Positions 5,409 through 36,963 of a DNA stretch of 62,651 nt are shown here, piece by piece. The position numbers and the translations under genes are program-made. Location of the stretch: contig JBDLKA010000008.1 of the NCBI GenBank assembly GCA_039714075.1, positions 1-62,651 on the forward strand, given 5' to 3'. Below the pieces are notes generated by a model, which saw only the letters and a program-made list of their open reading frames with translations, was not told where the DNA came from and did no database searches. Position 1 is the stretch's first letter, and each line of letters starts with the position of its first letter. This stretch comes from Candidatus Krumholzibacteriota bacterium (GTDB lineage Bacteria; Krumholzibacteriota; Krumholzibacteriia; LZORAL124-64-63).

Positions 5409-5916
5409 CCCGGGCTTCAGCGGCTTTCTTGTTCTTGCGCTTGTTGCAGGCTTCCTTGTCCTTGCAGGCACCGTAAAGCTCCAAACGATGTCGGTAGATC
5501 TGGAAATTGTTTTCCTCGGCCAGCTTTTCCTGAAGAGCCTCCAACCGGGGATTGAAGAATTCGGAGATCATCCCGCACTCGAGACAGATCATGTGGTCAT
5601 GGTGCTCCACATCGGAATGACCTTCGTAGCGGGCCAGGCCGTCACCAAAACGGCGTTCCTCCACCAGGTTGCTTTCCACCAGCAGGTGCAGCGTGCGGTA
5701 GACCGTCGCGTACCCGATTCTGGGATTGACCTTCTTGACCTCGTTCAGCAGTTCCTCAACCGAGATGTGCCCGCGCAACCGGAAGAAAACCGAGATGATT
5801 GTGTTGCGCTGGCGTGTGGTTTTCAGGCCCTTGCGTTGAATGAACTCGGCAAAGGCGGCTTCCTTTTCCTTGACGAGGTTCTCGTCCACTTCCTTGGATG
5901 GGTTAACGGGTGCCAT
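5401..5916 (-). CDS. fur: Fur family metal-dependent transcriptional regulator
   Basis: GLKTTRQR, ATVYRTL, HHDHMICLECG, HRLELYGAC. Metal specificity (Fur or Zur) is not established. Confidence 0.9.
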   Translation of the reverse strand: MAPVNPSKEVDENLVKEKEAAFAEFIQRKGLKTTRQRNTIISVFFRLRGHISVEELLNEVKKVNPRIGYATVYRTLHLLVESNLVEERRFGDGLARYEGHSDVEHHDHMICLECGMISEFFNPRLEALQEKLAEENNFQIYRHRLELYGACKDKEACNKRKNKKAAEARGA

Positions 5917-31687: not shown

Positions 31688-32415
31688 GCGGTTCCGGGGA
31701 CTGGCTCCAGCAGGCGCCCCTGTTGTCCGACCAGGACTGGCGGCACGGCTGGAGCAACAGCCGGGGTCCCGATTTCCGACCGGACGCCGACGCCCCCGAG
31801 CAGGCGGACCGTGTTCAGGAACTTGTTCTGGCGGCGAGACTGAAAACCGGCGCCTGGGCTCGTCAGGTCCACGGCGGCAAGGTGCTGCAGGTCACCGAGG
31901 CCGGCTTCGCGGGCGAGGCGGACGCCCTGTGGACCGATCAGCCCGGACTGGGCGTCATCGGACGCGGCGCGGACTGCCCGTTGATCCTGGTGGGTGGAAC
32001 ACGCCCGGACGAGACCCGGGTCTGGGGATTCGCCCACGCCTCCTGGCGGTCCACCGTACAAGGCATCACCGCGGGCCTCATCCTGGCCCTGACCGAAGCC
32101 GGCGCCGATCCCGCCGGCCTGCGGGCGGTCATTTGCCCCTCGGCCGGTCCCTGCTGCTACGAAGTGGGTGAAGAGGTTCGCCAGGCGGCCCTCGAATCCC
32201 TGGGTCCGGGAGCCGCCTGGTTTTTCCTGGAGAATTTCGACCGTCTCAGCTTCAACCTGTGGGAGGCCAACATCGCCCAGCTGACCAGCGCGGGCGTGGC
32301 CGAGAGCAACATCTTCAATGTGGGACACTGCACCATCTGCGGGGGCGATCTGTATCCCAGCTATCGCCGCGACGGGGACCAGGCCGGACGGTTCGCCGCC
32401 GTCATCGGTTTCTGA
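31684..32415 (+). CDS. pgeF: PgeF/YfiH family protein
   Basis: QVHG, ADCP, HASWR, CCYEVG, CT and SYRR motifs. Confidence 0.9.
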   Translation: MSGSGDWLQQAPLLSDQDWRHGWSNSRGPDFRPDADAPEQADRVQELVLAARLKTGAWARQVHGGKVLQVTEAGFAGEADALWTDQPGLGVIGRGADCPLILVGGTRPDETRVWGFAHASWRSTVQGITAGLILALTEAGADPAGLRAVICPSAGPCCYEVGEEVRQAALESLGPGAAWFFLENFDRLSFNLWEANIAQLTSAGVAESNIFNVGHCTICGGDLYPSYRRDGDQAGRFAAVIGF

Positions 32416-33223
32416 CCAGCGCTTCTACGGTCACCTGGATTCCCAACGCCAGACCGAAGGTGCAGACGATGGCCGCCCCGGTGGGCAGATCCAGCACGTA
32501 ACTCAAGGCCGATCCCGCAACGACCACCGCGGTTCCCATGCCCACCACCCAGAAGAACTGGGCCTTGAGGGTGGAAAAAAGCCGCAGGGCCATCACCGCG
32601 GGGACCACCAGCAGGGTGAAGACCAGAAGGACTCCCGCCACCTGCACGCTCGAGGTGACCACCATACCCAGCACCATGTAGAACACGAAGTCCCAGCGGC
32701 CCAGGGGCAGACCGTCGCGGCGGGCCTGTTCCGGGTCCTCGGAAATCCGCAGCAGCGGTTTGTGGCAGAAGTACAGGACCACTCCCAGGACGCCGTAAAG
32801 AATGGTGGTCTTGATCACCACCGGCCAGCTGACCCAGAGGATCGCTCCGACCAGCAGGTGGTTGATCTCCTCCCCTCCGTGGGGAACCAGGGTCAGCACC
32901 AGGATCATGGCCGCGCTGAACACCACATAGATGATGCCGATGTAGGCTTCCTGGGGTATCCGTGAATCCCCGCCCCGGGTCCCGGACAGCAGCAGGGCGC
33001 CCAGAAAGGTGGCGATCAGGCCCACGATGTAGGCGTTGTCCGTGCCCACCTCCGCACCGAACAGCAGGGCCAGGGCCACCCCGAAAGCGGCGATCTGGGC
33101 CAGGGCGATGTCCACGAAAATGACCCCGCGCTTGACCACATGGGAGCCGAGATACCCGTGCATCGCGACCAGCACCAGGGATATGGCGACGGGCGCGGTC
33201 ATCATTTCCATGAATCCGCTCAT
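32402..33223 (-). CDS. Metal ABC transporter permease (ZnuB/MntB-like)
   Basis: HGYLGSHVVKRGVIFVDIALAQ, EAYIG, GVLLVFTLLVVPA and DLPTGAAIV motifs. Confidence 0.9.
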   Translation of the reverse strand: MSGFMEMMTAPVAISLVLVAMHGYLGSHVVKRGVIFVDIALAQIAAFGVALALLFGAEVGTDNAYIVGLIATFLGALLLSGTRGGDSRIPQEAYIGIIYVVFSAAMILVLTLVPHGGEEINHLLVGAILWVSWPVVIKTTILYGVLGVVLYFCHKPLLRISEDPEQARRDGLPLGRWDFVFYMVLGMVVTSSVQVAGVLLVFTLLVVPAVMALRLFSTLKAQFFWVVGMGTAVVVAGSALSYVLDLPTGAAIVCTFGLALGIQVTVEALVRNR

Positions 33224-34209
33224 GAGTCCGCCTTCGGCCTGGCCGCGCCGGCTGTTTCCAGGTTGCGGCAGATCACCTCGAACAATTCCAGATAGCCGGT
33301 GGCTTCCTCGACCGCCAGGGTCGAGCCCGGCAACACCGCCAGTTCGGCGCCGATCTTTCCGGCCACGTGGGCCGCGGCCTCGATGTGATTCCAGGTGGCG
33401 GCGATCACCAGAACCGGATTGTGTTGCCGGCCGAGTTCGATCAGACCTTCGACATGGCGCGGGGCCGGAGAGATGCCCGGCCGGTTCTCGATGACCCCGA
33501 TGATTTCCAGATCCATCCAGGCGGCGAAATACTCCCAATGCTGGTGATAGACGATGAGTTTCCTGATCCCCAGACCGCCTATCCGGGTTTCCCAGTCCTT
33601 TTGGCGCTCTTCAATCCGGCGGGCCAGTTGATCCGCCCGCTGCCGGTAACGGTCGGCGGCCGCCGGATCGAGGACGGCCAGTCGTTCTGCGATCAGGTGA
33701 CCGACCGCGATTCCATTGCGGGGATCCAGCAGGTAATGCGGGTTTCCCAGAGGGTGGATGTCGCCCTGCGAGCGATCAACCTCGCCCACGGGAACCTCGA
33801 GGATTCCCCCCTCGCCCAACGCCAGGGCGCAGTTCAACTCGCCCTGCTGCCCGGGACGAATGCGGGGATTGCGGGCCGCGTCCAGCAGCAGCGGCAGCCA
33901 GCCGATTTCGAGTTCGAGTCCGTTGTAGACCAGCAGGTCCGCCTTCTTCATCCTGCGGGCCAGGGAAGGTTTGGCGGGCAGGACATGGGGATCGCGGTGG
34001 CCCTTGCACAGGAATTCCACTTCCACGTCATCGCCACCGACCTGCTCGGCTATCCAGCCCAGATCAGCGAGGGTGGCCACCACCTTGACCTTGGCCTGAG
34101 CCGGGCCGGGTAAAACCAGACCCGCCCCGAAAACCATCATGGCCAGGAACATTCCTATTCGGATCACGACGGGCCGACCCGCTGACCTGAAGTTGTCGAT
34201 GTTCAGCAT
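33220..34209 (-). CDS. Metal ABC transporter substrate-binding protein (TroA/ZnuA-like)
   Basis: DPH, NGLELEIGW, DIHPLGNPHYLLDP, YH and PGISP motifs after a signal peptide. Confidence 0.92.
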   Translation of the reverse strand: MLNIDNFRSAGRPVVIRIGMFLAMMVFGAGLVLPGPAQAKVKVVATLADLGWIAEQVGGDDVEVEFLCKGHRDPHVLPAKPSLARRMKKADLLVYNGLELEIGWLPLLLDAARNPRIRPGQQGELNCALALGEGGILEVPVGEVDRSQGDIHPLGNPHYLLDPRNGIAVGHLIAERLAVLDPAAADRYRQRADQLARRIEERQKDWETRIGGLGIRKLIVYHQHWEYFAAWMDLEIIGVIENRPGISPAPRHVEGLIELGRQHNPVLVIAATWNHIEAAAHVAGKIGAELAVLPGSTLAVEEATGYLELFEVICRNLETAGAARPKADS

Positions 34210-34220
34210 GCCGATCCTCC

Positions 34221-35360
34221 TCAATACAGATGGGCCGGATGCGACCCGATGGTGAAGTTGGCCTGAACGATGAACCGCAGATCATCCTCCATGGTGACCT
34301 TGTCCTGGTGGTAGACCATCTCGGCCCTGACGGCGCTGAATTCGCTGGGCGCGAACGTCAGGTTGATCTTGTATTCCCGCAGGTCGCCTTCCAATCCGTG
34401 GTCGTGGCCTTCGTGACCGGGTTCCTCCGCCGCGGCATGGTCGATCCCCGCGTCCGCCTGACCGACGCCCAGTCCCAGCCACCAGTTGCGGTGGAAACGG
34501 TACTGGGCCAGGCCGTACCAGCCCCAGGGATCGCCTTCGCCTTCCTCGTAGTCGGGCCACAGCGCCTCGACGGTCAGGTTCAGGGCGGGGCCGCGGGTGC
34601 GGGCCGAAGAGATCCACTTCCAGGTGAGATCGGCCCCGTACATGTCCACCTTTTTGTTCTCGCCGGGATGGCGGGCGTCGGGACCGTGCAGGTACGAACC
34701 GCTCAACTCGAGGGTGGCATCGTCGGTCAGGTCCCACAGGTTGGTCAGCCTGCCGCCGCCGGCCAGGTTCTTGTTGTGGGCGTCGAACGGCGCGGCCTCG
34801 CCGCTGACTCCGTAGATCCTGAGGTCGCTGTACCAGGGCACCGGCGCGGTGACGATGCCCATCGCCCCGGTGTCCGCGAAGACGTGGTCACTGAGGAAGG
34901 CGGCGATCGCCACAGGAGCATCGCTGAAGGGGAACTGGTGCATGTGCAGCGGAGCGTGCTTGCCGAAAGGCAGGGCGAACTTGCCCAGCCTGAGGCCCAG
35001 GTCCGCGGGCAGGGATTGCCCGTCCAGATACGCTTCCTCCACATGGACGACCATGCCTTCGGCGTGGGCGTCTTCCTCCCCCTCGTGGGCGTGCGCCGGA
35101 TGCATGCCGATGTTGAAGTTGGCCTTCCAGAAGGGGTCCACCACCGAGGTGAACTGGACTTCGACGCCGTCGATCTTGAATCCGTTCAGGTCGCCGGTGG
35201 GATTGTCCCGGGACGCCTGCCCCCGGATCAGACCGTTGACGCTGATGGCCGGGTTCATGGACCGGGACGCCCCGGTCAGGGTGCTGGATTGAGCCAACGC
35301 GAGCGCGGGTATTCCTGACAGGATCATCAGGTAAATCAGGGTTTTTGCCGGAAATGGCAT
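34221..35360 (-). CDS. His-rich outer-membrane beta-barrel, probable metal uptake porin
   Basis: Signal peptide, NPAISV, EEAY, FGKHAPLHMH, His-rich loops, PSEFS, and C-terminal IGSHPAHLY. Confidence 0.8.
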   Translation of the reverse strand: MPFPAKTLIYLMILSGIPALALAQSSTLTGASRSMNPAISVNGLIRGQASRDNPTGDLNGFKIDGVEVQFTSVVDPFWKANFNIGMHPAHAHEGEEDAHAEGMVVHVEEAYLDGQSLPADLGLRLGKFALPFGKHAPLHMHQFPFSDAPVAIAAFLSDHVFADTGAMGIVTAPVPWYSDLRIYGVSGEAAPFDAHNKNLAGGGRLTNLWDLTDDATLELSGSYLHGPDARHPGENKKVDMYGADLTWKWISSARTRGPALNLTVEALWPDYEEGEGDPWGWYGLAQYRFHRNWWLGLGVGQADAGIDHAAAEEPGHEGHDHGLEGDLREYKINLTFAPSEFSAVRAEMVYHQDKVTMEDDLRFIVQANFTIGSHPAHLY

Positions 35361-35413
35361 GACAGCCTCCGTCTTGAATGGGTTCCGTGTCCGTTGATCA
35401 GGGAAACCGGATG

Positions 35414-35737
35414 TCAGACAGAGACGATCGGGGGCCCGCGGGCGGCGGGAACCAGGAGGGCGGAATCGGTGGGAGCTTCCGCTTCCCCGGGGAACAGGAG
35501 TTCAAACGTCCGCGCGAGTTCCAGGTTTGGAACCGCGGGTGTCTCGGCAATAAAGGTGGCATTGACGAGGCAGAAGTGGCAGCCGTCAGTCTGACCCGCC
35601 TCATGCAGATGGGTGGCGCCGTGGGCGGCCAGACCGATCTGGACGGTCAGCAGAAGAACACCGGCCAACGCGGCGAATACTCGCCGGCGCCGCTGTTTAA
35701 ACCCGCTTTTCCTGGCTGCCGGACTTGTCTTGATCAT
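35414..35737 (-). CDS. DUF2946/CruR-like leader protein (TM-His-CxxC...RGPP), candidate ribosome-arrest peptide
   Basis: RRRR, hydrophobic helix, HGATHLH, CHFC, Pro/Ala linker, C-terminal AARGPPIVSV. Confidence 0.8.
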   Translation of the reverse strand: MIKTSPAARKSGFKQRRRRVFAALAGVLLLTVQIGLAAHGATHLHEAGQTDGCHFCLVNATFIAETPAVPNLELARTFELLFPGEAEAPTDSALLVPAARGPPIVSV

Positions 35738-35744
35738 GAAGTCC

Positions 35745-35773
35745 ATTCTAATGGCAATCATTCCTGCCGTCAA
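35745..35773 (-). promoter_or_regulatory. Sigma-70 promoter of the metal uptake operon, with a Fur-box-like inverted repeat in the spacer
   Basis: TTGACG-17 nt-TAGAAT. The spacer region contains AATGATTGCCATT. The predicted +1 falls at or near the ATG at 35737. Confidence 0.65.
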
Positions 35774-35784
35774 TCCGGGCTGGG

Positions 35785-36963
35785 CTACCGCTCACTGCAC
35801 ATCCGTACCAGCCGGGGATCAAACCGCGCGACCTTGCTTACCAGGTCCGCCTGGCAGGACATGACCTCCTCGATATCCTTGTAGGCCATGGGCAATTCGT
35901 CGAGCCCGGCCGAAATCAGGTTCACCTTTTTCCGGGCCAGGAATTCCCGCCCCTCCTCCCAGGTGAACTTCTTCTTCGCCGCCTTGCGGCTCATCCTGCG
36001 CCCCGCACCGTGCGCCGCCGAGTTCAGCGATTCCGCGTTTCCCAGCCCGCGCACCACATACCCGGGTGTGGCCATGCTGCCGGGGATCACGCCCAGCATG
36101 TCCCTGCCGGCGGGCGTGGCGCCCTTGCGATGCACCACCACTTCCTTCCCGTCGTGCACCTCACGCCAGGCGAAGTTGTGGTGGTTTTCCACCTTCAGGA
36201 GCGATTGGACACCCAGGTTGCCCACGATGCGCCGGTGGATCAACTCGTGGTTGGCCGACGCGTACCGGCCCATCAGTTCCATGGCGTGCCAGTAATGCCG
36301 CCCTTCTTCACTTTCCAGGGACAGCCAGGCCAGCGACGCCAGATGTTTCGGCAGTTCAGGATGCATTTTGGCGGCCACCCTGCTGTAGTGCCGGGCAATG
36401 GCGGCCCCGGTTCCCCGGCTCCCGCTGTGGCTGAGCAGGGCCAGGTAGCGGCCCGCCTGCAGGCCCAGGCTGTCGGCCTCCAGAACAAGTTCGCCGAATT
36501 CAACAAAGTGGTTTCCCGCGCCCGAGGTGCCCAGTTGCCCCCAGGCCTTGTCCTTCAGACCGGCCAGGAAAGAGGTTTCGTGCCAGTCATCATCCATGAC
36601 CTGGTGGCTCAGCTTCTGGTCTTTGCGGAAGGTGCCGCCGACGCCGAACAGGGTTTCCCGCACGAGCGCGTTTCTCAAGGCCTCTTCGCGCTCTTCAAGT
36701 GCCGCCACCGGCCAGTCGACCACCGTCAGGCACATGCGGCAGGCAATGTCCATCCCCACCGCGTAGGGAATGACGGCGTTGTCGGTGGCCAGCACGCCCC
36801 CGATGGGCATGCCGTACCCGCAGTGGGCGTCGGGCATCAGGGCGCCTTTGCGGGAGATGGGCAATTCACAGGCGTTTTTCATCTGCCGGAGGGAGGCGGC
36901 GTCCGCCATGTCGCCCCACTGGCGGAAAGGAACTCGTCCGGTGGTCTGGTCTCTCCGGTTCAT
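35785..36963 (-). CDS. rtcB: RNA-splicing ligase RtcB
   Basis: MPDAHCGYG, GMDIAC, GNHFVE, HHNFA, HRKGAT, PGSM, HGAGR and DELPMAYK motifs. Confidence 0.95.
   Translation of the reverse strand: MNRRDQTTGRVPFRQWGDMADAASLRQMKNACELPISRKGALMPDAHCGYGMPIGGVLATDNAVIPYAVGMDIACRMCLTVVDWPVAALEEREEALRNALVRETLFGVGGTFRKDQKLSHQVMDDDWHETSFLAGLKDKAWGQLGTSGAGNHFVEFGELVLEADSLGLQAGRYLALLSHSGSRGTGAAIARHYSRVAAKMHPELPKHLASLAWLSLESEEGRHYWHAMELMGRYASANHELIHRRIVGNLGVQSLLKVENHHNFAWREVHDGKEVVVHRKGATPAGRDMLGVIPGSMATPGYVVRGLGNAESLNSAAHGAGRRMSRKAAKKKFTWEEGREFLARKKVNLISAGLDELPMAYKDIEEVMSCQADLVSKVARFDPRLVRMCSER

Follow-up and report, generated by a model that had tools for sequence, protein, structure and literature searches.

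Nascent-chain metal sensing has so far been demonstrated by experiment for copper only. In Bordetella pertussis, CruR (Bp2923) is the first gene of a metal-import operon, according to the available part of PMC9426467, and its arrest was mapped by toeprinting, with stalling as the on state and metal as the off state (PMC12992588). In Rhodobacter capsulatus, the exported nascent sensor CutF stalls in response to copper, and the stall melts a stem that hides the SD sequence of cutO, so that the detoxifying oxidase is switched on (10.1101/2022.11.11.516240 and 10.1101/2025.02.05.636593, in the portions available). SecM, ApdA, ApdP and ApcA combine the same arrest core with the same logic of SD unmasking (excerpts of PMC12992588 and PMC10502375). 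RGPP was the strongest arrest core in published tests and tolerated different contexts, and all seven of the C-terminal RAPP/RGPP proteins of S. lividans that were tested arrested. Sensing of Ni/Co has already been proposed for His-only CutF-like members (available part of 10.1101/2022.11.11.516240). Rows of a published table list, without comment, RAPP leaders before 'zinc-regulated' outer membrane genes, with nine such downstream proteins, and two DUF2946 genes are among the genes changed in a Zur study (PMC4176598, as far as its accessible text goes). Our literature search, to which subscription journals were mostly closed, found no paper on a zinc-sensing arrest peptide.

The window analyzed here is the whole 62,651-nt stretch of DNA presented above. 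It carries a candidate arrest-peptide leader before three genes for metal uptake (Table 1). We consider it very probable that the leader forms an arrest-based metal switch, and assign a probability of roughly 0.6 to the full zinc version, a cis-acting nascent-chain zinc gauge in which stalling in low zinc would turn the importer on.

Table 1. Features of the candidate leader and its operon (positions in the window)
Feature	Position	Strand	Basis and remarks
Sigma-70-type promoter, TTGACG (35773-35768), 17 nt, TAGAAT (35750-35745)	35745..35773	-	Promoter scan; predicted +1 at or next to leader ATG
Leader ORF, 107 aa, CruR/CutF-like arrest-peptide candidate	35414..35737	-	ORF call; ends ARGPPIVSV
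Hydrophobic signal/anchor helix V20-A38	35624..35680	-	Sequence, hydropathy, AlphaFold2; probably N-in, C-out
Candidate metal site H39, H43, H45, C53, C56	35570..35623	-	Conservation and spacing
RGPP arrest motif R100-P103	35429..35440	-	Conservation and published arrest tests
Anti-SD arm, last codons V-S-V and first stop base	35416..35425	-	Fold; +10 to +19 from predicted P-site codon
Inner hairpin of the 53-nt spacer, joins the two arms	35381..35408	-	Fold; variable in sequence, weakly supported
SD arm with porin GGAGG (35370-35366)	35365..35374	-	Fold
His-rich general-porin-fold outer membrane protein, homologue of Vibrio 'Omr'	34221..35360	-	AlphaFold2, Foldseek, homology
ZnuA-type binding protein of the Vpa1307/ZnuAII kind; His80, His163, His227	33220..34224	-	PF01297; start codon uncertain
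ABC-3 (ZnuB-type) permease, last operon gene	32402..33223	-	PF00950

The leader has a basic N-terminus (R9-R19) preceding the hydrophobic helix, in which hydropathy reached 2.31 over 17 residues. In the AlphaFold2 model, residues 10-43 formed a helix with a pLDDT of 90-97 (overall pTM 0.46), and the C-terminal half, conserved in length and not in sequence, was unstructured. The candidate ligands, H39/H43/H45 and C53-H-F-C56, lie 44-61 residues N-terminal of R100, RGPP stands 4 residues before the stop codon, and 53 nt separate the stop from the porin ATG (35360). The 107-residue ORF was thus found with the features that the original prediction had given it, except that the gap in its 'HGATHLH-x-CHFC' is 7 residues. 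The longer starts TTG 35773, ATG 35761 and ATG 35746 were rejected; they overlap the promoter and are absent from relatives. The NCBIfam search returned no name for either the leader or the porin. Among the 34,231 stop-to-stop frames of at least 60 aa in the genome, R[AG]PP was C-terminal in 69 and A[AG]PP likewise in 69, so the C-terminal motif alone is not above chance; when a hydrophobic segment and His/Cys were also required, 2 and 0 frames were left, respectively.

Measured against the rules for CutF-like proteins (Ozturk et al. 2023), the leader is shorter than 150 aa, has PP within its 15 C-terminal residues and a signal peptide (judged by hydropathy only), and is followed by a same-strand gene within 1000 nt. 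A CutF-like stem-loop was also found by computation: it masks the SD of the next gene at a distance that the stalled ribosome could reach, with weak support from compensatory changes. An export signal as in CruR/DUF2946 proteins, a basic stretch plus a hydrophobic helix, was indicated by sequence, hydropathy and the model; copper-homeostasis genes and a long spacer were not found, the genes downstream being the porin, PF01297 and PF00950. The expected membership of DUF2946 (PF11162) was not borne out, with a score of 16.4 bits against the Pfam cut-off of 23.7 (E 0.015). Matches at E<=0.01 were obtained for 4/34 and 7/63 homologues in two overlapping sets (best 1.2e-4), and rank 4 in the ESM Atlas was a cluster with 48% DUF2946 at 0.95. 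The proposed kinship with CruR and CutF therefore holds for architecture, RxPP and the 43-45 residue spacing, and not for the Pfam cut-off and the copper genes; the leader class is known from CruR/CutF, and strict membership fails on these last two points.

Conservation was assessed in a near set of 49 loci, 38 of them distinct, of which 3 had too little upstream DNA and 35 were informative. A leader preceded the porin in 35/35, ending in R[AGSD]PP in 34 (RAPP 16, RGPP 13, RSPP 3 and RDPP 2) and in PKTSPP in one. In the alignment of the 34 homologues, whose rows were picked by this motif, R100, P102 and P103 were the only invariant columns; H39 was at least 90% conserved and His was present throughout. 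CxxC was present in 19/34 and missing in 15/34, and where present it always lay 43-45 residues before the Arg (19/19; 43 in the window), the corresponding range being 41-48 in 23 distant loci. All Cys were lost and the His cluster was kept in three loci (L019, L042 and L043). Conservation of H, CxxC and RxPP upstream of porin homologues, originally proposed as a check, was found for RxPP (34/35 near loci) and His and not for CxxC; the loss of RxPP in syntenic homologues that would have told against the proposal was not seen. Over 82 codons in 8 members of the genus, pN/pS was 0.54, ranging from 0.44 to 0.61 over the whole ORF. The distant set comprised 110 distinct loci, 75 with at least 750 nt upstream, and a leader was detected in 57 of these 75 (50 by script and 7 PKxxPP-like ones added by eye). 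Under a rule fixed beforehand, 20 of 40 further hold-out loci passed, with 2 near misses.

The leaders varied in their ends and ligands. In Sulfurovum mangrovi, an annotated hypothetical gene before the same cassette (L177, 3213-3569) is a leader with HSKHHH, CxxC and HAPP. Leaders of one phylum (that of G061, probably Myxococcota, judging from how the porin homologues are named; L059-L088 and L178-L217) end in APKxSPP; ends of this type comprise PKTSPP, PKQSPP, PKNSPP and PKQGPP, and these leaders carry HxxCxxHG and a second HxC site. The literature search, covering few subscription journals, found no paper describing PKTSPP/KTSPP as an arrest motif. LHxH and CxC took the place of CxxC in L102-L124 and similar metagenome loci, amounting to 21/49 R-type leaders. 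In several relatives (L009, L019, L042 and second matches in G001-G004 and G021) the cassette occurs twice, and the leader of the additional copy, which is His-only, may read another metal. The genome under study has a second His-rich RAPP leader (L055; G000:C15:44574-45032, +) directly before genes for an outer membrane efflux protein, a CusB/HlyD protein and an RND-like pump; it is probably the equivalent for efflux and would respond to metal in the opposite sense.

The stops and starts of the porin, binding protein and permease genes overlap, and a convergent PF02578 gene lies beyond the permease. The porin had no Pfam match. Its AlphaFold2 model was a beta-barrel (pLDDT 86), and the best Foldseek matches were trimeric general porins, not TonB receptors; a profile of its family found the V. 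campbellii homologue with an E of 2e-32. The family is unnamed, and databases mislabel its members as TonB-dependent. The best solved relative of the binding protein was Synechocystis ZnuA, with Mn-binding proteins also among the solved relatives; it was 30% identical to the Vibrio protein, and the conserved DPH and GNPH histidines were common to both. No ATPase gene followed the permease in 14/14 near and 37/37 metagenome loci whose flank extended for 800 nt or more, and one was found nearby in 8/70 short loci of another phylum. The leader hence does head a porin, binding protein and permease operon as foreseen, and the ABC system presumed there is incomplete for want of an ATPase gene in the operon. 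The genome has a separate complete ZnuA-ZnuC-ZnuB operon (G000:C50; L054 2522-5008, -), before which neither a recognizable Zur box nor a leader was seen; it is possible that this operon donates the ATPase.

In V. parahaemolyticus, the homologous omr-znuAII(vpa1307)-znuBII genes lie in the same order, also with no ATPase, in the available parts of PMC9817125 and PMC3794297. They belong to the predicted Zur regulon and rose 283-1034-fold in zinc limitation (PMC9817125), and Vpa1307/ZnuAII aided growth in zinc depletion in one strain (PMC3794297) and had a minor role in another (PMC9817125), as reported in those same parts. In the V. campbellii record examined here the three genes recur in that order, accompanied by neither an ATPase nor a leader. 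The V. campbellii binding protein and permease (30%) are closer to those of the window than the genome's own ZnuA/B are, and the binding protein matches Vpa1307 in His spacing and in the motifs encoded by the primers printed in PMC3794297. This V. campbellii cassette comes with two sites that each differ from the Vibrio Zur box at a single position, whereas the window has the leader and no recognizable Zur box: the best matches at its promoter had 3-8 mismatches to four consensus boxes, from which the host's operator may differ. Two Fur-family regulators are encoded in the genome (window 5473-5832, -; G000:C113:10061-10399).

Distant loci were searched for the Zur-like box TGCAA-N5-TTGCA, the core of the box predicted for Desulfovibrio (PMC545781, accessible part), which was chosen after seven patterns had been tried on the first set. 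Of the loci lacking a leader, 7/18 had a perfect box; of those with a leader, 2/57 had one that deviated at a single position. Among the hold-out loci it was found in 7/20 without and 0/20 with a leader (Fisher p 0.008, uncorrected for kinship); on independent pairs, which were too few, the median p was 0.5 and not significant. Of 36 loci that lack a leader, 22 also lacked the box. Mapped onto a quickly built tree of 78 porins, the box required 9 changes, at least 6 of them forced. These sequence comparisons show a trend for the Zur-type box and the leader to be mutually exclusive. In four loci (L071, L077, L085 and L087), a divergent gene that looks hemerythrin-like by eye shares the Zur-like box with the porin.

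The predicted promoter, TTGACG-17-TAGAAT before the leader ATG, was confirmed as the sole promoter-like site in 34500-36500, where 0.2 were expected in shuffles. The ATG lies 7 nt past the -10 hexamer, and across 8 aligned promoters only TT, TA..T and ATG were invariant. A -10 hexamer 6-8 nt before the start was present at 19/32 near leaders vs 0/32 porin starts, and the same geometry at 55/1,385 long frames of the genome, a rough baseline. This enrichment at leaders supports a leaderless mRNA, probably with its 5' end at the leader ATG. The resemblance of the promoter spacer to a Fur site was dismissed (5 mismatches, not conserved). So was a terminator-like site at 35675, which falls within the leader ORF; such sites were no commoner than chance predicts (1 found, 1.8 expected). 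An RtcB-family RNA ligase gene (35785-36963, -) ends 11 nt before the -35 box. No terminator was found between the two, and read-through into the operon is possible; rtcB was rejected as part of the transcription unit, being absent at this place in every other locus (L001-L049).

In the minimum-energy fold, 35425-35416 paired with 35374-35365 in a 10-bp stem with a probability near 1, so that the porin SD was paired with the last codons of the leader. The small hairpin GACGG-AGG-CTGTC, originally taken to hold the SD, exists and is worth -2.7 kcal/mol alone; it does not serve as the gate, as its probability in context was 0.00. It was also discarded as a switch in stalled models (0.02-0.12 at +15/+18), and it folded alone in only 2/8 genus members. 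To compare native anti-SD/SD partners with swapped ones, 23 dereplicated near loci were used, 11 close kin having been dropped. The duplex energy was -15.2 kcal/mol for native and -12.0 for swapped partners (0/100,000 permutations), and native pairing peaked exactly at the motif. Synonymous recoding weakened the pairing (15/23 loci at or under 0.1), the native partner ranked best in only 6/23 loci, and Pro codons are partly anti-SD by nature. Distant loci (47 R-type and 10 K-type) gave the same outcome, and there the comparison also held against upstream windows taken from the gene itself.

For the stalled state, P102 was assigned to the P site, following the toeprint of CruR. A ribosome footprint at the RGPP site lowered the computed cost of opening the RBS from 13.3 to 7.9; the cost fell in 32/34 loci, and in 2/34 the RBS was not opened. 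Control footprints placed 45-60 nt upstream gave no lowering, and those 15-30 nt upstream gave only 0.6 kcal/mol. In the stalled model of the window, the SD did not open fully (unpaired 0.05-0.87; cost of opening 8-10 kcal/mol). The intergenic fold of the window was not unusually stable against shuffles (z -0.72), and among 10 close sequences 92.6% of positions were paired with one compensatory pair, the covariation score being reached by 62/500 shuffles. A stalled ribosome would break the anti-SD stem, which would make stalling the on state, and by these computed folds the gate is the long stem formed with the last codons of the leader.

Other explanations were weighed against this reading. 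The same stall and anti-SD switch may answer to a metal other than zinc, or to others besides it (Ni, Co or Mn bound by His, or Cu bound by CxxC), which we regard as unlikely. With a separate complete ZnuACB in the genome, transport of a different metal by the cassette is possible, CxxC at the CruR spacing is compatible with copper too, and further points in its favor are the widely differing ligand sets among loci, the Mn-binding relatives of the binding protein and the His-only CutF-like leaders linked to Ni/Co genes (available part of 10.1101/2022.11.11.516240). These are set against the zinc regulation of the orthologous Vibrio cassette and the Zur-type boxes that replace the leader; copper in particular is opposed by the lack of CxxC in 15/34 near loci and by an operon without a copper gene. 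Zinc is the likeliest signal, and the comparative evidence favors it over Ni/Co. The original extension of the mechanism beyond copper thus stands insofar as the operon is non-copper, and its newness is weakened by the Ni/Co leaders already proposed in print and by the RAPP leaders in the published table.

Attenuation of the CruR type, in which the stall would shield a rut site from Rho, release would end transcription and the SD stem would be secondary, is improbable. The spacer has 53 nt vs 162, the anti-SD pairing is partner-specific and located at the stall site, and the C excess (C/G ratio 1.5 in the last 26 codons, 1.4 in the spacer and 1.1 in the porin gene) is modest and due in part to Pro/Ala codons, even though CruR also heads an importer and works in this way (accessible text of PMC9426467). 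A SecM-like monitor that gauges export capacity or the redox state of the envelope would share the secM-secA architecture (PMC10502375, in part), with His/Cys that are not metal ligands and a Cys pair that may form a disulfide, as proposed for CutF in the available part of 10.1101/2025.02.05.636593; with metal-uptake rather than Sec genes downstream, and the His cluster kept where all Cys are lost, we give it very little credence. Equally remote is a stable small membrane protein that would act in trans, as a metal chaperone or a subunit of the transporter, and whose synthesis RGPP would only tune: purifying selection extends over the whole ORF (pN/pS 0.44-0.61) and an ATPase-less operon could use an accessory part, whereas the model shows no structure for the C-terminal half, whose length is conserved but whose sequence is not, and the cassette exists without a leader in Vibrio and in 18/75 distant loci.

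In the preferred zinc reading, an mRNA that probably has no 5' leader would begin on the leader ATG, and the basic N-terminus and helix would insert the nascent chain into the Sec channel. Arrest at RGPP would then place the His/Cys cluster at the periplasmic face, and the arrested ribosome would cover the anti-SD arm and free the porin SD, so that the porin, ZnuA-type protein and permease are made. With plentiful periplasmic zinc, the metal would bind the cluster, a helix-loop-helix would fold and pull, and arrest would be released; the ribosome would terminate, the stem re-form and the operon shut, possibly followed by Rho. If true, a zinc-reading leader would let bacteria gauge zinc outside the cytoplasm, which Zur cannot, and a likely role would be assigned to the unnamed porin family. 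The broader proposal of a widespread arrest peptide, encoded by leaderless mRNA, that senses zinc in the periplasm while it is being exported, is evolutionarily interchangeable with Zur on one porin-ZnuA-ZnuB cassette, has ligands from His plus CxxC to His only and uses an undescribed PKxSPP core in one phylum is tentative, at somewhat less than even odds. The natural His-only and PKxSPP variants offer a panel for metal selectivity and new arrest cores.

Compared with CruR, as described in the available part of PMC9426467, the window leader has a similar export signal and a CxxC 43 rather than 45 residues before an RxPP near the C-terminus; the same polarity is likely, and the His cluster is an added feature. 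CruR responds to copper before a TonB receptor, whereas the window leader precedes a porin, ZnuA and ZnuB; CruR has a 45-nt 5' leader, a 162-nt spacer and Rho-dependent termination, in contrast to the probably leaderless mRNA, 53-nt spacer and anti-SD stem here. The signal peptide of CruR is dispensable, and its paper, in the same part, knows of no riboswitch for Cu or Zn. The window leader would resemble CutF in the export of the nascent sensor and, by computation, in an SD-hiding stem; the accessible portions of the two CutF reports describe CxxxC with a proline run instead of RGPP, and stalling induced by copper, whereas metal at this importer would relieve the stall. SecM, ApdA, ApdP and ApcA monitor Sec/YidC activity and control protein-export genes, in the parts of PMC12992588 and PMC10502375 available, in contrast to a leader that precedes metal uptake. 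The locus would thus pair CruR polarity with the CutF RNA switch, which makes it a direct test of how metal binding releases or prolongs a stall.
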